Part shown: piece after piece, positions 1 through 44,260 of the stretch | How the letters are laid out: every line of letters begins with the position of its first letter | Position numbering within the stretch: position 1 is the first letter of the stretch | Notes under the pieces: model-generated | Seen by the model: the letters and a program-made list of their open reading frames with translations, nothing else | Database searches by the model: none | Told to the model about the DNA's origin: nothing | Program-made: the position numbers and the translations under genes | Origin: an uncultured Planctomycetia bacterium | Lineage (GTDB): Bacteria; Omnitrophota; Gorgyraeia; 2-02-FULL-51-18 | Reading direction: 5' to 3' | Length of the DNA stretch: 64,000 nt | NCBI GenBank assembly: GCA_964606485.1 | Contig: CAZSGP010000004.1 | Location: 92,365 to 156,364 of the forward strand

Positions 1-353
1 ATGAGATTCAGTCTCCGCGCTTCGCCGATCATGAATTCCATATCAGAGCGGCGGTCAGCGACCGGGTTCGTGTTCGGCATCGGGCAAACACCGGTGAAAC
101 CGCCTTTGACTGCTGCCCGCAAACCCGTTTCAATGGTTTCTTTGTATTCGTAACCGGGTTGTCGCAAATGAACGTGAATGTCGATTAAGCCGGGTGTCAC
201 AATTTTATTTTTCACGTCGATTTCGTGATCGGCTTTATCGGTAATTTTTTTAGCAATGCTTTTTACTTTCCCGTCTTCAATCAGAAGATCGAGAATTTCA
301 TCGATTTTATTTTTTGGGTCGACTACATGACCGTTTTTAATTAGAGTTTTCAT
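1..353 (-). CDS. pyrC: Dihydroorotase, N-terminal part; the gene runs off the window start
   Basis: Reverse translation from the ATG at 353 gives [13 protein letters not shown]...[14 protein letters not shown], containing the DxHxH metal-binding motif of dihydroorotase. An AGGA ribosome-binding site lies upstream. It is the third gene of a pyrR-pyrB-pyrC operon. Confidence 0.8.
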
Positions 354-370
354 ATCATCCTATCCAAACT

Positions 371-476
371 ACCTCCCCGGCACTTCGTGTCCACCCCTCC
401 TTGGTAAGGAGGGGAAACTTCGTTTTCCTTTCCTCCCCTTACTAAGGGGAGGTGTCCACCTCAGTGGACGGAGGGG
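371..476. repeat. Family-B structured palindromic intergenic element, copy 1, with an extra inverted hairpin
   Basis: It contains the hairpins CCCCTCC..GGAGGGG, CCTCCCCTT-ACTA-AAGGGGAGG and GTCCAC-CTCA-GTGGAC followed by GGAGGGG. It fills the pyrB-pyrC gap. A near-identical ~47 nt core recurs at 25822-25868. Confidence 0.5.
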
Positions 477-1400
477 TTATCTCTCAACCATTGTCGTATG
501 AAACAGCACGGCCATCCTCACCGCCACGCCGTTTGTCACCTGATCCAAAATCACCGACTGCGGACCGTCCGCCACTTCGGCGGCGAGTTCCACGCCACGG
601 TTAATCGGACCCGGATGCATAATCATGCAATCGGGCTTAGCGCGTTTAAATCTTTCTTTTGAAATGCCATACTCAGCGGCGTATTCGCGAATCGAGGGAA
701 AGAACGCTCCCTTTTGGCGCTCGAGCTGAATGCGTAAGATATTCAGCACGTCCTGTTCGGCAATCACTTGGTCTAAATCGTAACTGACTTTCACGCCTAA
801 TTTTTCAATCTGCGGAGGAATCAAGGTCGGAGGCCCGCACACCGTCACTTTGGCGCCCAGTTTCGTGAGTCCCCAAATATTCGACCGCGCAACGCGCGAG
901 TGGAGAATATCACCCACGAGACAAACTTTAATACCTTCCAATGTTTTTCGTTTTTCGCGGATGGTGAAAATATCTAAAAGCCCTTGGGTTGGGTGTTCGT
1001 GAATCCCGTCACCCGCATTGATCACGCCCGCCTTCACGCACTTGGCCAAGTATTCGGCAGATCCGGAGGAGGAATGACGCATCACAATCGTATCGACGTG
1101 CATGGCTTCAATATTTTTCGCGGTATCTTTTAAACTCTCACCTTTAGAGGTGCTCGAGCCCGAGGATGAAAAATTGATGGTGTCCGCCGAAAGACGCTTA
1201 GCGGCAAGCTCAAAACTCGTGCGCGTGCGGGTGGAAGATTCGAAAAATAAATTGGCAATGGTTTTTCCGCGAAGGGCGGGAACTTTTTTCACGTCACGGC
1301 TCGACACTTCTTTAAAAGATTCAGCCGTGTGAAGCAGAAGCTCGATCTCTTCTTTAGAGAGCTCTTCGAGCGATAAAAGATCTTTCCGCGTCCACGTCAT
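477..1400 (-). CDS. pyrB: Aspartate carbamoyltransferase catalytic subunit
   Basis: The 307-aa product carries the STRTR carbamoyl-phosphate motif and the HPTQ and HPGP motifs. It sits in operon context with pyrR and pyrC. Confidence 0.95.
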
Positions 1401-1416
1401 ATTAGAACTTCCTTTA

Positions 1417-1496
1417 CGACGGGTCCTGCCAGCGGTTGTCCGTTCGGACTCGCTTTCAGCTCGCCAAGACGGACGCCTACCGCCGTCACCCGTCGT
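1417..1496. repeat. Family-A long imperfect palindromic element, copy 1 (REP/MITE-like)
   Basis: The arms GGGTCCTGCCAGCGGTTGTCCGTTCGGAC ... AGACGGACGCCTACCGCCGTCACCC can pair as GGGT/ACCC, GGCGG/CCGCC and GTCCGT/ACGGAC. It occupies nearly the whole pyrR-pyrB gap. Related copies lie at 5181-5268 and 32321-32412. Confidence 0.6.
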
Positions 1497-2030
1497 CTAA
1501 TGTTTCTCGCTAACAACGACTTCCTCCGATCGATCTGTTTCACTAAATTTCACGTGAACAATTTCATTTTCACTGGTTGGAATATTTTTTCCGACAAAAT
1601 CGGCGCGGATCGGGAGTTCGCGGTGTCCGCGGTCTATCAAAACGGCAAGCTCAATCCGCTTCGGCCGGCCAAAATCAATCAGCGCGTCGAGAGCCGCGCG
1701 AATCGTGCGCCCCGTGTAAAGCACATCATCCACGAGCACTACAATTCTGTCGTTTAAGTCGAAGCTGATCTCGGTTTTATGAATCACCGGTTGTTCGGCG
1801 ACTAGGGTGAGATCATCGCGGTAGAGATTAATATCTAAGATGCCTAATGGCAATGGGTTACGAGAAATAGATTCAATGGTTTTTTGAAGGCGATTGGCCA
1901 AAATAACGCCGCGGGTGTGAATACCCACCAGACATAGTTTTTCCGTACCTTTATTTTTCTCTAAGATTTCATGCGCCATGCGGACGATGGCGCGGTCGAT
2001 TGAAGGTTGGTCTAAAACAAGCTTTGGCAC
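1497..2030 (-). CDS. pyrR: Bifunctional pyrimidine operon regulator / uracil phosphoribosyltransferase PyrR (GTG start)
   Basis: The 177-aa product has a PRTase motif [12 protein letters not shown] and the C-terminal [20 protein letters not shown] region, and aligns end-to-end with PyrR. Confidence 0.9.
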
Positions 2031-2090
2031 TTTTTTCCTTTTTGGGCCTCTCAGGACCCATTTAAAAGAGACTTTTGGAAGTATACGCTT

Positions 2091-2125: not shown

Positions 2126-5100
2126 TTACGCCGCTACACCCACCGCTTCTTGCATGGTTTGAAACGCAGAAAGTCTGCTTCCTACGACTTCGAGCACTGA
2201 TCGAAGCGTATAAGCCGGAGCCACTGAAAAATTTTGTCCGGTCACAAACTCAATCAGGTCTTTCGCGGACCGCGGCGAATTTTTATCCAAAGCGCAAACC
2301 GAAAGGACTTTTAAATACTGACTGTCTTCAACCGCTTTTAAGAGGTCTTCGTAACGATTACCCAGATGAATTTTTCCATCTCTCCGTACGCTTTGGCTAT
2401 TGGCGCGGAAATAATCCGTAAAGTCGTGCGCCAATCCGCCCGCCATCGCAAGGCCCGTTAAAATATTGGGAATGCTGTTTTCGCCCACTTCCACAAAAAC
2501 AGCCAGCTCATTGGGAGCTAATTTCACGTCTTTCTTCAGTTGTTCGACATTGCGAATTTCGGAGGCACTTTTAAAAAGAACTTTGGTAACCACTTCATAC
2601 CGATGACTTTTTCCGATAATTCGATAATTGTCTTGATCTTCTCTCTTGCTCGATTTTTTATTTTTATCAAAATAACTCTCAACTGCGTTGATGCTTTTTT
2701 GACGATTTGGTGGAACCGTTTCGGAAAGAACTCCCGTAAAAACAAATCTTCTGGAGCGATTCGCCTCGATATAAGTTTTAATCACCTTAACAATTTCAAA
2801 AAATTCCTCATCAGAGGCGACGAGACGGCTCAGCACGTCGAATTGGATTTCTGCTCTTCCTTCTTGTTTTCTTTTGCGCGGAGCCACTTGAATCTGTTTG
2901 GCCGTTTCACCCGATTGATCAATAATAAACGCATTCGCCCTCGCTTCCTGCTCAGCCTGAGCAGTGACAGACAAATCTTTTTTAAATAAAGTGAGCGCTG
3001 ATTGCACATCCGGAATTTCCAGCTCTTTTACTTCTTCACCGGAAAACAAAACCGTTAGCTTGTTGTCTTTAAATAGGGGCACAAACACATTTGTGTTTTT
3101 AAATTCATCTTGAATCGCCAAAGCGTATTTTGTAGTTTGGTTCAGACGGCCCGAAAAAATCATTCCTAAAAATAAATCTTTCACCGCTTTTGCATCAACC
3201 GGATCAATGGGCAGGCGTGCCCCGCGTATGTACCGACTAGTTCCATCTTTAATGGAACCTAAAACCTGAATCCAGTCGAACGTCTCGCCTCGCTTTGATT
3301 CTAATGTTTGGTACGTAGCCTTTTCTCTTCTGGGAAAATATACAAGCTTAAGACTTGGCGTAGGCTCTCCATCAAGCTTGCTTGTTTCAAATCCGTAATA
3401 GAGCGCCTTGAAAATTGTGGGTGTCGTTCGACCGCGCTCGCGGCGTGAGATGAGTAGCATCGTATCGAGTGAGATGAGTTGATCTCGAATTTGATACAAC
3501 TGATCAAACGTTAGACTACCCTTAGGCCGAGCCTCCGAAGAAACGGAGGACTCCACTTTAGGATTTTGAGGAACCGGTGTGGCGGCCTGCAAATCAAGCG
3601 GGACTGGAGTTTTTTCGGTCGGTTCGGGAAGCGAAAGACGTGCACCGGTACCAATTTCGGCGTATTCGGGAAATACCGTGAGAACGGTTCCGATGACATC
3701 GGACTTAAAGCTCTGGGGCAAGCGAGGACTTTGCTCATTATCCGCATACTGCCAAACTCTATCAAAAAATTCGTCTATCTGTTTATGGAGATCCTGGTGA
3801 GTGATCATGACATGCTCGTAACTCTTCTCCTTCAATCCGGGTTCTTCGTAAAGAAGCGCGGTCAAGTAATATCCAGACTCATACCGCTTCATGATTTCCT
3901 GGCGAATCGTTTGAAGATCCGCCTCGAGTTTGGCGTACTGCGGCAGATCTCTCCACAATTTTTTGACATATCGGTAAAAATCCCGTGTCACGTGACTCAG
4001 AGTCCAAGCGGATATTCCCAGCGCTGCAGCCATTGTGGATAGGTGTGTCAGTATTTCTGTGGTGCTCGCTAGGCGCGCTCCTAAACTTCCGCCTTTTAAA
4101 CCACCCGCATTCGGGTTTGTTGGGGGATAAATTCTTTCGATCCAGATCACCCGATCACGGCGCTTTGAATAAAGACCCATATCCCCTTCGTCCGGAGTTT
4201 TAGAATAATAGGAAATTTCATCCCTCTTTATCTCAAGGTAAACCACCTTAACGGTTTGCACCTTATTTCGGTTGCCTTGCATAAAGGTAATGTGCACAGG
4301 CTGAGGCCCCTTAAGCTTGAGATTTAAAAATTCATCAAAAGTGTAGTGATTGTCGGAGGGTCTATGAAAAATAGGTGCTGAGTCGGATGCACGAACAGCC
4401 CCTTTTTTAACTTCCGCAAGAGGTGTTTTTTCTGTCCGGTCAAAAGTGTTGCGTGCGGGAGTTTTTTCCGTGTAATCAAAATTAGCTAATCGGGCGCCTT
4501 GAGTGCGAGCGGTTAAAATTTCGGTAATTTCGTCATAAGCCGCGCGATTTTTTCTTCGCGTCACATTAAAAACAATCGGCGTAAAGTCTGCCGCGTAAGA
4601 AGGGTAAAATACGTCTAAAGATTCAAGCCCCACGTCGTGCCGGATCTTGATAAAACGCCCTGAGGCTACTCTAAATGCGTAAAAGAATAAATTCTCTCCG
4701 GACTGCTCTTTTAAAATGGCAGCGTCCGGGTTGTGGCGCAAGTCTTGGGCGAGACGGTTGGGAAAATAAGACTGTCCGGGTTCTTCCGGTTCCCCGATAA
4801 GATCATCAAATGCATAACGCTGAAGAATAAAATCAACAAACTCTTTCCAGCGAAGCCTTATCTGTGAAAGCGTCTCTGACACGTACCCCTTCCCTAAACG
4901 AGCCCCCGCCCCACTACGCTCGACCCCTAGCCGTTTTGTGAGCGGCCCAATCACGTTTGGCTCCATAGCAATGGATACCGTTCGCGACAGATTTTGCATG
5001 GGCGAAAGCACACTGCGCTCCTCAAACTTTTGACCAAGTAAAATTTTCTCGTAACGCGCTTGATTCGTCTCCTGGTAGACCTGCGGACGAATCACAAAAT

Positions 5101-6487
5101 AGGAAATGCCTTTTTGCCGAAGCAAGCTCTTAAGATTGGGTGTGTGATAACCGCCAGCAATCAAAATAGCCGAAAACCCAGAACGGGTCCTGCCGGCGGT
5201 TGTCCGTTCGGACTCGCTCGCGTTTAACCGCGGCTCGCCGAGACGGATGCCTACCGCCGTCACCCGTTTTGGGTTTTCGTAAAGCTTAGACAACATATTT
5301 TCAACAAATGCTTCATCGCGAGCGCACGTTAATTCATAAAATCGCTCCGCTTGCTCCACGCTTTCATCGAACCCTTTTTCCAAAAATAGCGCTCTCTCGT
5401 AAAATGCGTGCTGTTCTGTGATTTTTTTATTTAAGAAAGCCGTGAGTTCCGTAAGTTTCCAATTTTTGGAAAGGGCGCGGTACTCGCTGTACTCTTCGGG
5501 ACTCAGAGTCAATTGAAACAGCTTCTTATAAAGCTTCAGTTGCCGCTCGCAGATTCGCAGATCTTTTTCGTCAGCGGATTGCGCTAAAACCGAGAAAACA
5601 AGCTCCTCGAGTGCTTTTTCTTCCTTGAGAACTTGCTCGGGCCCCAGTCGTTTAGAGGCTTTGAGATAATTAAAATAAGCTTTCTCGTGTTGCGCTTTTT
5701 TTACATCAATTTTGGATTCTAATTGCCCAAGCGCCCGTAGCCGTTTTAAGTGCGTGAATTTTTCGGTAGGAATTTCTAAAAATTCAGCCTGGACGAGCAA
5801 TAATTTTACAAAATCGGTGAATGCCAGTAACCCGCTATGGTAGGCATCCGCCTTTGCCTGAAACGCCAAAAGGCGCGGACGGTAAAGACGCGGTTTTAAA
5901 ACGTCAATTGCGGTTTGAATTTGAGAAAGATAGGCCCCGAACTTTTCGCGCTCGGCGGCCACGGCGCGGTAAGATTCGATCGCTTCCTTATATAAGGCGA
6001 AGTTTTCCACGCCCCAGATTGTGAAATCGAGATTTGAGGTGAGGTCCAGATATTCTTCGCCGTGGAGCAAGCCTTGCTTCAAATACGATTGGGCAACTTG
6101 TTGTCTCAGTGCAGTACTTCCGTGCGTACGAAGCGTGGAAAGCGAAACGTTTCCGGATCCGGCTTCGACGAAAATATTCGCGGCGTTTCCATTCCCACGT
6201 ATGCGCGAATCGTTCTTGAGAATAATTTCCAAGGTCTTCGCTAGATTCATCTGTCCGGAAGTGTTGGTGTGCGCGTCTTCGAGTAAATACACTGTCATTC
6301 CCGCGGAAGCGGGAATCCAAGCATCCTCAACACTGGCTACACTCTCCGGAATTTTAAATGAAAGTTTCGCCTTCTGTTCTAAACCAAGGTCAGATGGCCG
6401 CAGCTCTCCGGCCGCAAAAGCAACTGGCTCCGCTAAAAGAGCCAAGATAAGCGCCAGTGAAATGGTTCTTAAAAAACGAAAATTCAT
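2126..6487 (-). CDS. Large secreted hypothetical protein (1453 aa) with N-terminal signal peptide
   Basis: The long ORF begins MNFRFLRTISLALILALLAEPVAFAAGE, a cleavable signal peptide. I recognised no catalytic motifs. TEKTP tripeptide-containing repeats occur. A family-A repeat is embedded in-frame at aa ~408-434. Confidence 0.6.
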   Translation of the reverse strand: MNFRFLRTISLALILALLAEPVAFAAGELRPSDLGLEQKAKLSFKIPESVASVEDAWIPASAGMTVYLLEDAHTNTSGQMNLAKTLEIILKNDSRIRGNGNAANIFVEAGSGNVSLSTLRTHGSTALRQQVAQSYLKQGLLHGEEYLDLTSNLDFTIWGVENFALYKEAIESYRAVAAEREKFGAYLSQIQTAIDVLKPRLYRPRLLAFQAKADAYHSGLLAFTDFVKLLLVQAEFLEIPTEKFTHLKRLRALGQLESKIDVKKAQHEKAYFNYLKASKRLGPEQVLKEEKALEELVFSVLAQSADEKDLRICERQLKLYKKLFQLTLSPEEYSEYRALSKNWKLTELTAFLNKKITEQHAFYERALFLEKGFDESVEQAERFYELTCARDEAFVENMLSKLYENPKRVTAVGIRLGEPRLNASESERTTAGRTRSGFSAILIAGGYHTPNLKSLLRQKGISYFVIRPQVYQETNQARYEKILLGQKFEERSVLSPMQNLSRTVSIAMEPNVIGPLTKRLGVERSGAGARLGKGYVSETLSQIRLRWKEFVDFILQRYAFDDLIGEPEEPGQSYFPNRLAQDLRHNPDAAILKEQSGENLFFYAFRVASGRFIKIRHDVGLESLDVFYPSYAADFTPIVFNVTRRKNRAAYDEITEILTARTQGARLANFDYTEKTPARNTFDRTEKTPLAEVKKGAVRASDSAPIFHRPSDNHYTFDEFLNLKLKGPQPVHITFMQGNRNKVQTVKVVYLEIKRDEISYYSKTPDEGDMGLYSKRRDRVIWIERIYPPTNPNAGGLKGGSLGARLASTTEILTHLSTMAAALGISAWTLSHVTRDFYRYVKKLWRDLPQYAKLEADLQTIRQEIMKRYESGYYLTALLYEEPGLKEKSYEHVMITHQDLHKQIDEFFDRVWQYADNEQSPRLPQSFKSDVIGTVLTVFPEYAEIGTGARLSLPEPTEKTPVPLDLQAATPVPQNPKVESSVSSEARPKGSLTFDQLYQIRDQLISLDTMLLISRRERGRTTPTIFKALYYGFETSKLDGEPTPSLKLVYFPRREKATYQTLESKRGETFDWIQVLGSIKDGTSRYIRGARLPIDPVDAKAVKDLFLGMIFSGRLNQTTKYALAIQDEFKNTNVFVPLFKDNKLTVLFSGEEVKELEIPDVQSALTLFKKDLSVTAQAEQEARANAFIIDQSGETAKQIQVAPRKRKQEGRAEIQFDVLSRLVASDEEFFEIVKVIKTYIEANRSRRFVFTGVLSETVPPNRQKSINAVESYFDKNKKSSKREDQDNYRIIGKSHRYEVVTKVLFKSASEIRNVEQLKKDVKLAPNELAVFVEVGENSIPNILTGLAMAGGLAHDFTDYFRANSQSVRRDGKIHLGNRYEDLLKAVEDSQYLKVLSVCALDKNSPRSAKDLIEFVTGQNFSVAPAYTLRSVLEVVGSRLSAFQTMQEAVGVAA
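5181..5268. repeat. Family-A palindromic element, copy 2, inserted in-frame inside the 1453-aa CDS
   Basis: GGGTCCTGCCGGCGGTTGTCCGTTCGGACTCGC...GAGACGGATGCCTACCGCCGTCACCC is translated on the minus strand as ...[24 protein letters not shown]... without a stop codon. Confidence 0.6.
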
Positions 6488-10178: not shown

Positions 10179-12075
10179 CGGTGACGGACTTGGCTAAGTT
10201 GCGCGGCTGGTCAATGTCTTCGCCAAACTCCCGCGCGATACAGTAAGCGATGAGCTGAAGCGGCACGACAGTAAGAAAGGGAGAAAAAAGTTCTTCGACT
10301 TTCGGAATTTCAATCACGTAAGAGGGGCTGATCTTTTGAATTTCGGTATCCCCTTCGGTCACAATGGGGACGATAATTCCATTACGCGCCTTGATTTCTT
10401 GAATATTCGAAATCATTTTGTCGTAGGTCTTGGATTCCGGGCAAATACAGATCACCCACGGGTTTTCGTCGATGAGCGCAATCGGCCCGTGTTTCATTTC
10501 ACCCGCCGGATAACCTTCGGCTGGAATGTAGGACAATTCTTTTAATTTAAGCGCTCCTTCGAGCGCATTGGGCGTATTGATGTTGCGGCCCAAGTATAAA
10601 AAGAAACTATTCGGCGCGCGTTTTCGTTTTTCCGGTGCCAGAGAAAAATATTTCTCAAGACTCTGATGATAACGCTCGTTGAACTCCCGCGCGTTTTTAG
10701 CCCATTCGGCTTCACCGGCTTTGTAGTTGTTTAAAAATTTTTGCACAAGGCGCGGAACCCTTAAAAATTCTTTGAGCATTTTTTGAATTTCTTTGGGTGT
10801 CTGCGATTTTAAAATTCCGGCGAGATACAGTGAAAAAAGATACAAAATGGCAAGTTGCGCGGTGTAGGCTTTGGTTGAGGCAACAGCAATTTCAGGACCC
10901 GCGTGTGTGTAAATCACGCCTTGCGCTTCGCGGGCAAGCGAACTGCCGAGCACATTGCAAATCGTCATCGTGAGAGCGCCCTTGGACTTCGCTTCACGAA
11001 TACCAGCGAGCGTGTCAGCCGTCTCCCCACTCTGAGAAATGGAAATCACAAGCGTATCTTTAGAAATATTGGGACTGCGGTAGCGAAACTCGCTAGACGT
11101 ATCGACCCACACTGGAAGTGGCGTGAGTTTTTCGAGAACGTACTTGGCGGTCAACCCCGCATGAAACGACGTGCCGCAGGCAATAATGACAATTCGTTTA
11201 ATTTTTTTAAACGCCGCGTCTTTAATTTTTAATTCTTCGAACGAAACTTTCGAGCCCTTCACGCGCTCCTGGAGAATTGCGCTCAAAATATCGGGCTGCT
11301 CGAAAATTTCTTTGAGCATGAAATGCGGAAAGCCGCCCTTTTTGGCGAGTGCCGCGTCCCAATTAATTTTTGTCGTCACACAGGGAACACTTTTTCCAGC
11401 TAAGTCCGTAAGGCGCACCTCGTTTTCGGTGAGCGTAATCACCTGGGCATTTTCAATAAACACCGCATTCTTCGTGTGTTCTAAAAAAGCGGAAACGTCG
11501 CTCGCTAGAAAATTTTCATTCTTACCAAGCCCTATGACAAGCGGGCTGTCCATCTTGGCGGCCACAATTTTTCCCGGTTCCTGCGAGCAGATCACCGCAA
11601 TCGCGTAGCTTCCTTTTAAATCCTTCAGCGCGCGGCGAACGGCATTTTCGAGATTTCCTTTATAGTATTTTGAAATGAGGTGAACAATGACTTCGGTATC
11701 GGTTTGCGAACGAAACCGGATCCCTTCCTCTTCAAGCGTTTTCTTTAAATCAAAAAAGTTTTCAATGATTCCATTATGCACCACCGCAATTTGATCTTGT
11801 TTGTCCAGGTGCGGGTGCGCATTTTCAGGGGTGGGCGCGCCGTGAGTCGCCCAGCGCGTGTGACCAATAGCCACGTGGCCGGACAGCGGCCGCTTCTTTA
11901 GAAGCTCTTCAAGATTTTTAATTTTGCCATGCGTTTTTTCGATGGCAATGGCGTGATGGCCGTTCTGCACCGCGACGCCCGAGGAATCATACCCCCGATA
12001 CTCGAGTTGCTTAAGGCCTTGAATGACCAGATCCGGCGCTTTTTTAGGGCCGGTATAACCAAAAATGCCGCACAT
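10171..12075 (-). CDS. glmS: Glutamine--fructose-6-phosphate aminotransferase
   Basis: The MCGIFGY N-terminal nucleophile is followed by two SIS domains; 634 aa. Confidence 0.95.
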   Translation of the reverse strand: MCGIFGYTGPKKAPDLVIQGLKQLEYRGYDSSGVAVQNGHHAIAIEKTHGKIKNLEELLKKRPLSGHVAIGHTRWATHGAPTPENAHPHLDKQDQIAVVHNGIIENFFDLKKTLEEEGIRFRSQTDTEVIVHLISKYYKGNLENAVRRALKDLKGSYAIAVICSQEPGKIVAAKMDSPLVIGLGKNENFLASDVSAFLEHTKNAVFIENAQVITLTENEVRLTDLAGKSVPCVTTKINWDAALAKKGGFPHFMLKEIFEQPDILSAILQERVKGSKVSFEELKIKDAAFKKIKRIVIIACGTSFHAGLTAKYVLEKLTPLPVWVDTSSEFRYRSPNISKDTLVISISQSGETADTLAGIREAKSKGALTMTICNVLGSSLAREAQGVIYTHAGPEIAVASTKAYTAQLAILYLFSLYLAGILKSQTPKEIQKMLKEFLRVPRLVQKFLNNYKAGEAEWAKNAREFNERYHQSLEKYFSLAPEKRKRAPNSFFLYLGRNINTPNALEGALKLKELSYIPAEGYPAGEMKHGPIALIDENPWVICICPESKTYDKMISNIQEIKARNGIIVPIVTEGDTEIQKISPSYVIEIPKVEELFSPFLTVVPLQLIAYCIAREFGEDIDQPRNLAKSVTVE

Positions 12076-25818: not shown

Positions 25819-25821
25819 CTT

Positions 25822-25868
25822 TCCTCCCTTTACCAAGGGGCGGTGTCCGCCTCAGCGGACGGAGGGGT
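25822..25868. repeat. Family-B structured palindromic element, copy 2
   Basis: CCTCCCTTTACCAAGGGGCGGTGTCCGCCTCAGCGGACGGAGGGG. Hairpin 2 carries compensatory changes relative to copy 1 (GTCCAC/GTGGAC becomes GTCCGC/GCGGAC). It sits between convergent stop codons. Confidence 0.5.
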
Positions 25869-32055: not shown

Positions 32056-32310
32056 TTATTTTTTCTTCTTTTCCGGCTTTTCTTCAAACGCTTCCGCTTT
32101 AAACTTCCCGCCAGCTGTCTTCATGAGCACCTCCACGCGGCGCTCAGCTTCGGTGAGCTTCTTTGTGCAAATGTCGGCCAGCTTCACGCCTTCCTCGTAC
32201 TGCTTCAAAGCGTCTTCGAGCGGCATTTCGCCGTTCTCAAGCTTTTCGACAATGCCTTCTAACTTTTTCAGCGCCGCTTCAAACGGCATTTCTTTCGGGT
32301 CTTGTGCCAT
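32056..32310 (-). CDS. xseB: Exodeoxyribonuclease VII small subunit
   Basis: MAQDPKEMPFEAALKKLEGIVEKLENGEMPLEDAL is typical XseB. The start is trimmed to the ATG at 32310, because the longer ORF would read through the repeat. Confidence 0.85.
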   Translation of the reverse strand: MAQDPKEMPFEAALKKLEGIVEKLENGEMPLEDALKQYEEGVKLADICTKKLTEAERRVEVLMKTAGGKFKAEAFEEKPEKKKK

Positions 32311-32320
32311 ATTATCCTCC

Positions 32321-32412
32321 GGACCAAAGTGGGTCCTGTCGGCGGTTGTCCGTTCGAAAGCCACCTTCGGTGTTTTCGAGACGGACGCCTACCGCCGCCA
32401 CCCACTTTGTTA
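32321..32412. repeat. Family-A palindromic element, copy 3
   Basis: CAAAGTGGGTCCTGTCGGCGGTTGTCCGTTCG...GAGACGGACGCCTACCGCCGCCACCCACTTTG, with outer arms extended by AAAGTGGGT/ACCCACTTT. It fills the xseA-xseB gap. Confidence 0.6.
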
Positions 32413-32417
32413 GTGTT

Positions 32418-33632
32418 TTAATCCAATATTTCTTTTACGACTCCAAAGATTGAGCCCTTGCTCAGCCTTGTTTGAAAAATTTGTCCCGCTTTAAGAGCGC
32501 TTGCGTCTTTAATAATCTTACCGTCTGCGCTCGTCGTCATGCTAAATCCTCGTTTGAGAATTGCGAGTGGGCCGAGCGCTTCGAGTTGATGGATTAAGCC
32601 TGAAATTTTTTCTTTTTCAATTCCGATTTGGCCTTGCCACAAATGCAAAAGGTTTTTGCGGAGTTCTTCGAGTTTCTGCCCTTGAATTTCAAAAAAAGAT
32701 AACGGGTTTTTCAACGCGCGCGAATCCACAAGATGATCCAGTTCCTGACGCAGATTTTTGAGCTGAGCACTCAGCGCAACCGTAGCACGGGTTTTGAAAT
32801 CACCGATTGTCGCGAGTAGATCCTCTTTCGGAGGAAGCACGATTTCTGCTGCCGCCGAAGGCGTCGCTGCACGTAAATCCGCGACAAAATCCGCAATCGT
32901 AAAATCAACTTCATGTCCCACCGCGGAAATTATGGGAATCGTGGAATTAAAAATTGCACGTGCGACTATTTCTTCGTTAAACGCCCACAGATCCTCAAGG
33001 CTGCCTCCACCGCGGCCGACAATGATGACGTCGGCGGCACTCCAACGGTTTAAGTCTTCAATCGCTTCGGCAATCGACTCTGCCGCTCCTTTGCCTTGAA
33101 CTTGAACCGGAAGAATTTGCACATGCGCTCCGGCGTGCCGGCGTTCGATCACGTGCAAAATATCCCGAAGAGCCGCGCCGTCAATTGAAGTTACAACGGC
33201 AATGGTCTCGGGTAAAAATGGAATGGGCTTTTTATGCGCTTCGTCGAACAACCCTTCTTCGGCCAATTTTTTCTTGAGCTGCTCAAACTGAAGTTGGAGG
33301 GCTCCCACTCCCTGTGGCTCCGCCCGCTCGACGTACAACTGATACTGGCCCCTCAAGGGATAAACACTGACGCGTCCAAAGCAGAGCACTTTCATGCCTT
33401 CTTCCATACGGAAACTGAGTTTGGCGTTTTCGCCGCGAAACATCACGCACTGAATTTGGGAGAATTCATCTTTTAGAGAAAAATAATAATGCCCGGAACT
33501 ATGGGATTTGAAATTGGAAATTTCGCCTTCGATCCAAATACCCGAAAATTGTTGCTCGAGCGTGAATCGAATATTCCGCGTTAGATCGGATACGGAGAAA
33601 ACTTGGCGGTCGGCTTCTACGATGTTTTTCAT
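32418..33632 (-). CDS. xseA: Exodeoxyribonuclease VII large subunit
   Basis: OB-fold N-terminus and a long catalytic/coiled-coil region. The start is trimmed to the ATG at 33632 (MKNIVEADRQ). Confidence 0.9.
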   Translation of the reverse strand: MKNIVEADRQVFSVSDLTRNIRFTLEQQFSGIWIEGEISNFKSHSSGHYYFSLKDEFSQIQCVMFRGENAKLSFRMEEGMKVLCFGRVSVYPLRGQYQLYVERAEPQGVGALQLQFEQLKKKLAEEGLFDEAHKKPIPFLPETIAVVTSIDGAALRDILHVIERRHAGAHVQILPVQVQGKGAAESIAEAIEDLNRWSAADVIIVGRGGGSLEDLWAFNEEIVARAIFNSTIPIISAVGHEVDFTIADFVADLRAATPSAAAEIVLPPKEDLLATIGDFKTRATVALSAQLKNLRQELDHLVDSRALKNPLSFFEIQGQKLEELRKNLLHLWQGQIGIEKEKISGLIHQLEALGPLAILKRGFSMTTSADGKIIKDASALKAGQIFQTRLSKGSIFGVVKEILD

Positions 33633-33642
33633 ATTGTCGCTT

Positions 33643-33723
33643 TGCCAGCGGGTCCTGGCCTTCGGCGGGCGATTTCGCGTGCAGTTGCGCGCGAAATCAT
33701 CCCGCGCTCGGCCACCCACTGGC
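33643..33723. repeat. Variant palindromic element sharing family-A termini (GGGTCCTG...CACCCACTGG)
   Basis: CCAGCGGGTCCTGGCC ... GGCCACCCACTGG flank an internal palindrome CGATTTCGCG..CGCGAAATC, upstream of xseA. Confidence 0.4.
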
Positions 33724-33730
33724 TAATATT

Positions 33731-34522
33731 TTAATTTAATAGTTTCCGTTGTACTCTTTCAATCGCGGTCGCCCTACCGGTAATGTGATCGACGGTAATG
33801 ATCGCGCCGCACAGCTTCACGTCTCCGGTCGCCGGCTTTTTCCGCGTCGGTGTTTGAGTGAGAAATCGTTTCAAAATTTCATCTTTTTGGGCGCCGATGA
33901 TTGAGTCATACGGGCCTGTCATTCCAAGATCAGTCAAATAAGCTGTTCCGGCATCCGTCACTTTTTCATCAGCCGTTTGCACATGCGTGTGAGTCCCAAC
34001 CACAGCAGCCACGCGCCCGTCCACATACCAACCCATTCCCATTTTTTCGCTGGTGGCTTCGCAGTGCATGTCGACAATGATGATCTGCGCATCTTTTTTT
34101 TTCACATTTAAAATTTCTTCATCCACCGATAAAAAGGGAGAATTAAAGTGATAGCGCATAAACGCTTGGCCTGCGATGTGAATGACACCGATTTTAATGC
34201 CTTTGCACTCTACGACCGTCGAGCCGTAACCGGGATTGCCCTTAGGGAAATTTGCCGGGCGAACTAAGCGAGCGTCCGTTTGAAGCATGTTTTCAATATC
34301 TTTTTTTCGGTCCCAGACGTGATCCCCGCAGGTGAGCACGTCACAACCGGTTTTGAATAAATCTTTGGCGATGCTTTCCGTAATACCCGAGCCATCACTC
34401 GCATTTTCGGCATTGCAGATGACGAAATCCACTTCTCCCTTAGCTTTCATTTCAGGGATAAAGCGTTCAATGGCTTTACGGCCGGGGTCGCCGTAGGTAT
34501 CACCGATGCAAAGAATTTTCAT
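33731..34522 (-). CDS. ymdB: YmdB-type metallophosphoesterase (2',3'-cyclic-nucleotide phosphodiesterase family)
   Basis: MKILCIGDTYGDPGR, GDHVWD, NAEN and GTHTHVQTAD blocks collinear with Bacillus YmdB; it lies immediately downstream of rny as in Firmicutes. Confidence 0.8.
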   Translation of the reverse strand: MKILCIGDTYGDPGRKAIERFIPEMKAKGEVDFVICNAENASDGSGITESIAKDLFKTGCDVLTCGDHVWDRKKDIENMLQTDARLVRPANFPKGNPGYGSTVVECKGIKIGVIHIAGQAFMRYHFNSPFLSVDEEILNVKKKDAQIIIVDMHCEATSEKMGMGWYVDGRVAAVVGTHTHVQTADEKVTDAGTAYLTDLGMTGPYDSIIGAQKDEILKRFLTQTPTRKKPATGDVKLCGAIITVDHITGRATAIERVQRKLLN

Positions 34523-44198: not shown

Positions 44199-44202
44199 CG
44201 TG

Positions 44203-44260
44203 TAGGGGCGCGATTCATCGCGCCCTGTTTATAGCGGGCGCAATAAATTGCGCCCCTACG
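44203..44260. repeat. GC-rich nested hairpins in the cysN-cysH intergenic spacer
   Basis: GTAGGGGCGC GATTCATC GCGCCCT GTTTAT AGCGGGCGC AATAAATT GCGCCCCTAC. A 10-bp outer stem encloses two inner hairpins with alternative pairings. It is not followed by a U-tract. Confidence 0.4.

Follow-up and report, generated by a model that had tools for sequence, protein, structure and literature searches.

Palindromic elements with a conserved asymmetric foot at operon junctions and inside genes of Omnitrophota and Solirubrobacterales

Four hairpin elements in a compact Omnitrophota genome

The stretch of DNA analysed here (64 kb, in the following termed the window) belongs to a compact genome with many gene overlaps. 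Its PyrB is about 90% identical to Omnitrophota proteins, and the best relatives of its xseA are found in Omnitrophota MAGs at no more than 66% identity. Nearly all window genes, including every gene that adjoins one of the elements described below, are encoded on the minus strand, and the GC skew of the plus strand is negative throughout, so that the window should lie within one replichore. Three near-identical imperfect palindromes of 71-81 nt (c1-c3, Family-A) and one variant (c4) are present in this region (Table 1). While c1, c3 and c4 occupy stop-to-start gaps within operons, c2 lies inside a coding sequence. The c1 element extends from the first base past the pyrR stop codon (1497-1499) to 3 nt short of the pyrB Shine-Dalgarno sequence, c3 is bounded by the xseA stop codon (32418-32420) and by the ribosome-binding site and ATG (32309-32311) of xseB, and c4 by the ymdB stop codon (33731-33733) and the xseA ATG (33630-33632), which results in the order rny-ymdB-[c4]-xseA-[c3]-xseB-ispA-dxs.

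Table 1. Coordinates of elements, genes and other features in the window and in related sequences
Feature	Sequence	Position	Strand	Remarks
c1	window	1416-1496	-	between pyrR and pyrB; core 1421-1491; outer stem ACGAC/GUCGU
c2	window	5171-5279	-	inside 1453-aa ORF; core 5185-5265 (81 nt, 27 codons); 13-bp outer stem
c3	window	32325-32409	-	between xseA and xseB; foot variant GGGUGGCG...CGACAGGACCC
c4 (variant)	window	33644-33723	-	between ymdB and xseA; same foot (GGGUGGCC...GGCCAGGACCC), unrelated core
pyrB	window	477-1400	-	downstream of c1; ATG 1398-1400
pyrR	window	1497-2030	-	upstream of c1; orthologs in L084-L086 with Pribosyltran domain
P0001 gene	window	2126-6487	-	host gene of c2; 1453 aa
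xseA	window	32418-33632	-	Exonuc_VII_L; c4 on 5' side, c3 on 3' side
PyrR-site-like hairpin	window	2016-2073	-	GGGUCCUGAGAGGCC
sigma-70-like promoter (11/12)	window	2108-2080	-	upstream of pyrR
second-family hairpin	window	380-477		downstream of pyrB
second-family hairpin	window	25819-25868		between two convergent genes
REP dimer	window	44202-44259		between PAPS-reductase and CysN-like GTPase genes
composite hairpin	L004	4262-4360		fills xseA-xseB gap
hairpin	L007	2953-3010		between xseA stop and xseB ribosome-binding site
hairpin	L011	1857-1885		between xseA stop and xseB ribosome-binding site
palindrome of another family, ~190 nt	L085	12460-12655		pyrC-carA gap
PyrB as annotated	L085	10001-11047		348 aa
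insertion in P0011	L002	~11380-11455		same loop as c2
insertion in P0032	L003	~280-355		same loop as c2
inverted pair	L141	910-1267		E2
inverted pair	L150	1421-1809		E2
inverted pair	L152	119-483		
inverted pair	L186	8219-8471		DnaX

A preceding sequence-only reading of the window had placed three copies with shared arms and a fourth variant at these sites, and pattern matches as well as gene coordinates bear this out. Both arm patterns quoted there have three exact matches each in the 64 kb (1421-1446/1467-1491, 5185-5210/5241-5265 and 32331-32356/32379-32403; 0 expected in shuffles), and GGGTCCTG-N50-80-CACCC has four matches, including the variant at 33650-33717 (0.02 expected). Described on the minus strand, the elements read 5'-GGGUG(A/G)C...CAGGACCC-3', and each window copy folds as a single long, imperfect hairpin (z-scores from -3.6 to -7.4 for both strands). 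From the base upward, the stems of c1-c3 are P1 (GGGU/ACCC), P2 (CGGCGGU/ACCGCCG), P3 (GUCCGU/ACGGAC) and a variable tip, with GA opposite GCAGG between P1 and P2, and AGGC opposite A between P2 and P3. Outer stems are contributed by differing flanks (GAAAACCCAAAAC/GUUCUGGGUUUUC in c2, CAAAGU/ACUUUG in c3 and GCCAGU/GCUGGC in c4), and in all four copies the GGGTGAC arm is on the G-rich, presumably leading-strand, sequence. The arms of c1 and c2 are both 94-97% identical although the sites are unrelated, which at the sequence level is the mark of recent copying. A covariance model built from the three near-identical copies (R1) scores c1 with 99.2 bits, c3 with 97.2 bits and c4 with 16.5 bits (E 0.38), and it detects no additional copy in the 64 kb. 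Shuffles, folds and the related copies described below agree that this family of repeats is genuine, with unpaired loops that are conserved, and no chance palindrome, as had been claimed.

Two further kinds of repeats were noticed in the window. Hairpins of the type CCCCUCC-UUAC(C/G)AA-GGAGGGG, in which an anti-SD-like sequence is paired with an SD-like one, constitute a second family with two sites, and in the closest relative (L004) a related composite is enclosed by a GCGACGGGUGAC...GGCCCUGUCGC shell. In addition, there is one canonical GTAG-tagged REP dimer (GTAG plus GGGCGCGA-TTCA-TCGCGCCC, with a mirror copy on the other strand), which is the sole perfect one in the window.

In Bacillus, PyrR sites are found between pyr cistrons, and the position of c1 would agree with a PyrR-dependent attenuator between pyrR and pyrB. 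This position is the single argument for such a function, which we consider practically dismissed: the same element occurs at unrelated places, RF00515 does not match Family-A on either strand at E<=10, and no U-tract follows the hairpin. Instead, a PyrR-site-like hairpin is found together with a sigma-70-like promoter upstream of pyrR; it matches RF00515 with 34.8 bits, which is under the family threshold of 54, and the two are probably the real pyr leader. The view that the element is not pyr-specific had already been expressed in the sequence-only reading and holds. Intrinsic terminators are likewise rejected, as the U-tract is lacking, no full element was called and only two fragmentary stems overlap c2 and c4. 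Rfam 15 assigned the window copies to no family, not even weakly, and 34 metagenome loci (20 + 14) gave no match even at E<=1. A kink-turn does not agree with inspection of the consensus either, in which the GCA bulge precedes G.A and then G.G or a Watson-Crick pair instead of A.G.

A common foot and covarying stems in a metagenome-wide family

In a genome with a PyrB 90% identical to that of the window (L085, GCA_040960315.1), R1 found four elements, at the pyrR-pyrB, pyrB-pyrC, carA-carB and carB-pyrK junctions. Their cores differ from those of the window, and they have the same foot (CGGGUGACG...CGGCAGGACCCG) and variable outer stems. Copies 1 and 4 have one common core in opposite orientations, and one of the four copies is reversed and thus antisense within its operon. 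In 7 of the 8 copies of the window and L085, the GGGUGAC strand corresponds to the mRNA sense, a hint that one orientation may be preferred among Omnitrophota. The pyrC-carA gap of L085 contains a palindrome of another family (-85 kcal/mol), and hairpin elements are thereby present at all 5 pyr-operon junctions examined. The annotated L085 PyrB starts with MRVTAGGAPRGPQG... because the gene caller read through the element; its true start is probably MVAKSVRWTRK. PyrB homologs in the database range from 307 to 348 aa, and the extension was examined in L085 only. For annotation, this means that the elements cause false N-terminal extensions, such as that of the L085 PyrB, and altered operon junctions.

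Window copies, L085 copies and hairpins from metagenomes have in common the foot 5'-CGGGU-GA-CG...CG-GCAGG-ACCCG-3'. A metagenome scan for this foot detected it in about 90 data sets, on at least 120 contigs whose GC contents range from 0.36 to 0.76, and folds with paired ends were obtained for 118 of the 125 pattern matches listed; foot variation is under-sampled in this wider family, because the search used the exact foot pattern. The Family-A core (GGTTGTCCGT-N20-50-ACGGAYGCCTACC) had no exact match among genome or metagenome contigs, and in the sequences covered by these scans the core is lineage-specific and the foot alone widespread. A second covariance model (R2), which was built from metagenome copies only, recognises c1 (40.9 bits, E 2e-7), c2 (41.1 bits) and c3 (23.7 bits, E 0.004) in the window, misses c4 at E<=1, and detects all four L085 copies with 43-51 bits and about 111 elements among the metagenome loci listed. 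In 67 genomes of other phyla (about 0.7 Mb of sequence), it detected no element. A viral collection contained two matches to the foot pattern, neither of which is a hairpin or was found by R2, and two subfamily sequences had no BLAST match among plasmids. Hosts could be named for two lineages, Omnitrophota and Solirubrobacterales (Actinomycetota; NCBI records), so the family occurs in at least two bacterial phyla, with a patchy distribution among close relatives. That the repeat might have neither further copies nor relatives, which the sequence-only reading had allowed for, is contradicted by the four L085 copies and more than 100 metagenome contigs.

The family members are rods of 70-110 nt that comprise three or four helices. 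At the base, a closing stem CGGGU/ACCCG, usually extended by 2-13 pairs, is followed by the asymmetric GA/GCAGG loop, a covarying stem, a purine-rich loop and a variable upper part. Covariation was assessed in an ungapped pseudo-alignment of 123 distinct elements among the matches listed. In the outer stem and P2, 79% of the cells are paired, compared with 34-42% in slid registers, 4-6 pair types occur at each position, and the covariation score of 0.341 (0.117 in shuffles) was reached by 0 of 500 shuffles. The search pattern fixes the foot only, and the adjacent stems still pair, so that the covariation that the sequence-only reading had proposed to look for is indeed present. Within the loop, positions 12 and 79 switch together, from A.G to G.A in five independent loci (c3, L108, L150, L158 and L186), and they are G-C in c4 and L088, which suggests a non-canonical pair beside a 3-nt AGG bulge. 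In 46 of the 124 copies listed (about a third), the motif of GCAG opposite GA is repeated near the tip in the inverse sense, and these rods have a pseudo-twofold symmetry.

Element lengths show no bias modulo 3. The sense frame that reads GGG-UGA is closed in every copy, and in 31 of 68 copies both other sense frames are open. All three antisense frames are open in 33 of the 68, and two or more of them usually are. An outer stem (U)AGCGAC/GUCGC is common to different loci (L004, L092, L138, L148), and outer stems therefore can travel with the element; they also differ between near-identical copies, and a simple copy-and-paste of a fixed unit thus does not explain them. The flanks of c1 and c2 are compatible with an insertion that produces an inverted flank duplication, and the flanks of the window copies are inverted, not direct, repeats. 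Target-site duplications were not detected: with either definition of the boundaries, direct repeats were no commoner than in shuffled pairings, self-complementary flanks being the sole exception. No protein and no transposase recurs beside about 70 elements, and the 58 window ORFs contain no transposase, RAYT or IS200.

Occupied and empty sites, coding copies and possible host functions

Comparison of orthologous sites indicates that elements were gained at pyrR/pyrB, in P0001 and at xseA-xseB. In two relatives with about 90% identical PyrB (L084, L086), there is a 4-nt overlap of pyrR with pyrB and no element, whereas the window and L085 have this junction occupied, by elements that differ in their cores. 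The N-terminus encoded by the window pyrB is about 9 residues shorter than in the element-free relatives, and it appears from this comparison that former pyrB coding sequence was turned into a new ribosome-binding site at c1. In most Omnitrophota, xseA and xseB are adjacent or overlap without an element, and unrelated hairpins occupy this junction in L004, L007 and L011.

What kind of host function could retain such hairpins? They could in principle be cis-acting RNA structures of polycistronic mRNAs that are selected by the host, be it as a shield against 3' exonucleases, as a site for RNase III or RNase Y, or to uncouple the translation of cistrons, with the GA/GCAGG loop binding an RNA-binding protein. 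Three of the four window copies lie exactly in the interval from a stop codon to the ribosome-binding site of the following gene, and the recurrence of unrelated hairpins at xseA-xseB, the prevalence of the mRNA sense in the window and L085, and the covariation of stems and of a non-canonical pair would all be expected for such structures, as would the fact that mismatches on the GGGUGAC strand are mostly purine-purine (58 versus 18). However, G.U is not in excess of A.C (30 versus 22), which gives no signal in this test for the folding strand, close relatives have the same junctions without the element, and Rfam contains no match. Family-wide, the orientation relative to flanking ORFs is unbiased (16 same-same versus 14 opposite-opposite), one L085 copy is antisense within its operon, and even copies in coding sequences occur in both orientations. 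As copies are thus found in both orientations relative to genes, including coding sequence, a function of the sense-strand RNA is disfavoured, and the mRNA stabiliser or processing role considered in the sequence-only reading is weakened for the same reasons. We regard host-selected RNA structures as an improbable primary explanation.

The coding copies deserve particular attention. The c2 element is in frame and stop-free in the ORF of P0001, a protein with homologs solely in Omnitrophota-type MAGs. Thirty-four homologs align with residues 1-520, and in an alignment of 17 sequences about 30 residues at the c2 point are absent in 14 of the 16 homologs. The site lies between a conserved FY.LT..RD..F helix and a conserved AVLITGGYHTPNLK strand, and by this alignment c2 has truly been inserted in frame into a conserved domain. 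For residues 1-529, AlphaFold gives a mean pLDDT of 83.5, with values above 90 flanking the insertion and of 50-70 at residues 401-440, a dip that falls between the helix 373-403 and the strand 438-445; in this model, the insertion is therefore a surface excursion of a folded domain. This N-terminal domain of about 520 aa, which is conserved in Omnitrophota proteins, has no match in Pfam, and Foldseek detected no significant fold match to it in the PDB. P0001 also repeats a G(A/S)RL motif five times. Other palindromic insertions are present in frame in the same loop of P0011 and P0032; they are G-rich, heptad-like and unrelated to c2, and the loop may be either a hot spot or merely a permissive site.

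In Solirubrobacterales, the E2 acyltransferase contains two copies of opposite orientation in frame, one in each flexible linker, so that the pair brackets the peripheral-subunit-binding domain, and two more in-frame copies are found in a DnaX linker. Such head-to-head inverted pairs, 80-210 nt apart, are frequent in GC-rich hosts. About 10-15% of the copies in low-GC contigs are inside long ORFs; in GC-rich contigs, ORF calls are unreliable except for those checked by homology. The predicted element-encoded peptides of P0001 or the Solirubrobacterales E2 include VTAVGIR, LGEPR and DAVGGTTPEEALATGR. Of 120 E2 orthologs, most contain peptides that derive from the element, some combine the same ends with different cores, and some are short alleles (PAAGPAG), which from their sequence are explicable as internal deletions between GCGG repeats. 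Pairwise identity is 0.76-0.77 in the element-encoded segments and 0.31-0.57 in the linker, in a sample that is somewhat biased because it was chosen by partial motifs.

One could imagine that coding copies are not translated at all, being removed as intervening sequences from the RNA, with the GCA(G) bulges as cleavage sites, either as a stretched bulge-helix-bulge intron or at an IRE1/RtcB-type splice site (CNGCNGN). CNG/CNGN indeed agrees with CGGCAGG in the 3' foot as well as with CCGCAGN at the apex, and the bulges are arranged in pseudo-twofold manner. On the other hand, these motifs are in internal loops and not in 7-nt hairpin loops, we know of no enzyme for such an RNA-level excision in bacteria, and c2, the E2 pairs of L141 and L150 and the DnaX pair of L186 all keep the frame and are stop-free in both orientations. 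In all coding copies examined, the TGA-containing frame is unused. Since a removal from the mRNA would make frame-keeping unnecessary, excision is very improbable.

Selection could also act at the DNA level, on a hairpin or cruciform recognised by some conserved host protein, be it a structure-specific recombinase or a nucleoid or topoisomerase-type binder of the kind proposed for BIMEs, or on a signal for replication or priming. Omnitrophota and Actinomycetota have an identical foot, the elements occur independently of orientation, the pseudo-twofold GA/GCAG loops of about a third of the copies would suit a dimeric binder, and in E2 orthologs the element is conserved above the linker background. 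Yet the elements are patchy among close relatives, have no fixed genomic position or neighbour, and are tolerated in E2 with internal deletions, and an insertion into protein-coding loops is hard to reconcile with a selected site. A DNA site kept by selection is therefore an unlikely reading, though a slightly better one than the RNA structure.

A probable insertion element and its comparison with known systems

Taking these observations together, we favour, with a probability of roughly 0.6, the explanation that Family-A is a local subfamily of a widespread, non-autonomous palindromic insertion element that resembles REP and Rickettsia palindromic elements (RPEs). The elements most likely spread as selfish DNA, as these do, because near-identical copies exist at unrelated sites, gains are seen at sites that are empty in sisters, both orientations occur without target-site duplication or associated gene, and copies survive only in intercistronic gaps and tolerant protein loops. 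As the asymmetric foot is invariant across at least two phyla and the stems covary, a trans-acting factor should read the folded foot. In such a mechanism, new copies would be made from existing ones as single-stranded hairpins, an enzyme acting in trans would recognise the conserved foot, and the new copies would land in either orientation without target duplication. They would persist only at harmless sites, i.e. stop-to-RBS gaps of operons, in-frame surface loops and flexible linkers, and would then be inherited with the host gene with their pairing retained, and a copy may double as a stable mRNA hairpin that uncouples neighbouring cistrons. We infer the mobility as single-stranded DNA, and likewise any effect on the mRNA. 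The lack of a transposase or RAYT in the 64-kb window and beside about 70 elements counts against the insertion-element explanation, and the identical foot in distant phyla, the strong covariation and the conserved peptides would also fit a host-selected function of RNA or DNA, which is possible as a secondary or alternative role.

More tentatively, the GA/GCAGG foot could define an undescribed superfamily of hairpins that crosses phyla and is read by a putative, widely distributed enzyme, which could be a transposase or recombinase specific for structured single-stranded DNA, or else a protein that processes RNA or DNA. If this were true, elements of the superfamily would remodel operon junctions and add peptides to essential proteins (E2, DnaX and the P0001 family) in uncultured bacteria at large. 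The invariant asymmetric foot and the covarying stems, as captured in R2, offer a handle for finding the recognising enzyme by phylogenetic profiling.

How do these elements relate to named systems? The literature searched, in which REP, RPE and MITE precedents were found, gave no description of this hairpin family, which apparently is undescribed so far, and membership in a named family is not supported because REP size, MITE repeats and duplication, and attC features all fail. Integron attC sites are similar in being imperfect palindromes of comparable length, in which structure is conserved over sequence, with conserved extrahelical bases and a site just downstream of ORFs. An assignment to attC is nevertheless rejected, as the RYYYAAC/GTTRRRY cores are lacking, the flanks are without AAC/GTT, and the elements are dispersed in both orientations without cassette arrays or an integrase, and also occur inside genes.

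Bacterial MITEs (ERIC, Correia/NEMIS, RUP, Nezha) are likewise small, non-autonomous, structured and multi-copy, are intragenic at times and can form mRNA hairpins, but they have IS-matching terminal inverted repeats and target-site duplications. The elements described here have no such duplications, their ends have only CGGGU in common before they diverge into GACG versus CCUGCCG, and the window contains no IS, so that the MITE option of the sequence-only reading had to be abandoned.

REP-like, in contrast, was the right general class. Like REPs, BIMEs and REPINs, the elements are imperfect palindromes that lie mostly downstream of genes and between co-directional genes, with some intragenic copies and no target-site duplication, and the head-to-head pairs in L141, L150, L152 and L186 resemble REPINs or BIME doublets. 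In some element subfamilies the upper stem begins with GUAGG, which the window copies also contain internally, and the other strand of the foot reads CGTC. However, GTAG- and CGTC-tagged REPs that are mobilised by RAYTs are single stem-loops of 20-40 nt with an unpaired terminal tag (PMC3733652), whereas the elements described here are multi-helix rods of 70-110 nt in which an internal loop is conserved. Nor do the tag positions match: GACG (CGTC on the other strand) reaches from the loop into stem 2, of which it takes up the first two pairs, and GUAGG is internal, so that neither is terminal and unpaired. As to the idea of a RAYT substrate, no RAYT/IS200 is encoded by the 58 window ORFs, and none recurs beside about 70 elements.

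For the in-frame copies, there is precedent in intragenic REPs and RPEs (PMC3733652, PMC10969869). According to the work of Ogata et al. (2000, 2002; summarised in PMC10969869), the RPE is a dispersed palindrome of about 100 nt that is found in intergenic regions or in frame in unrelated housekeeping genes, where it adds a peptide at tolerant sites. Neither kind of element encodes a transposase. In-frame insertions of this type are found in c2 of P0001 and in the linkers of E2 and DnaX. RPEs, as described there, are set apart by their own sequences and their confinement to Rickettsia and relatives, whereas the present elements occur in Omnitrophota and Solirubrobacterales, have coding copies in both orientations and a modular interior. 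In-frame "coding palindromes" thereby extend past Rickettsia to core proteins of uncultured Omnitrophota and soil Actinomycetota, where they occupy loops and linkers, and a structured palindromic family that crosses phyla is added to a field of mainly lineage-specific REP, RPE and MITE families.
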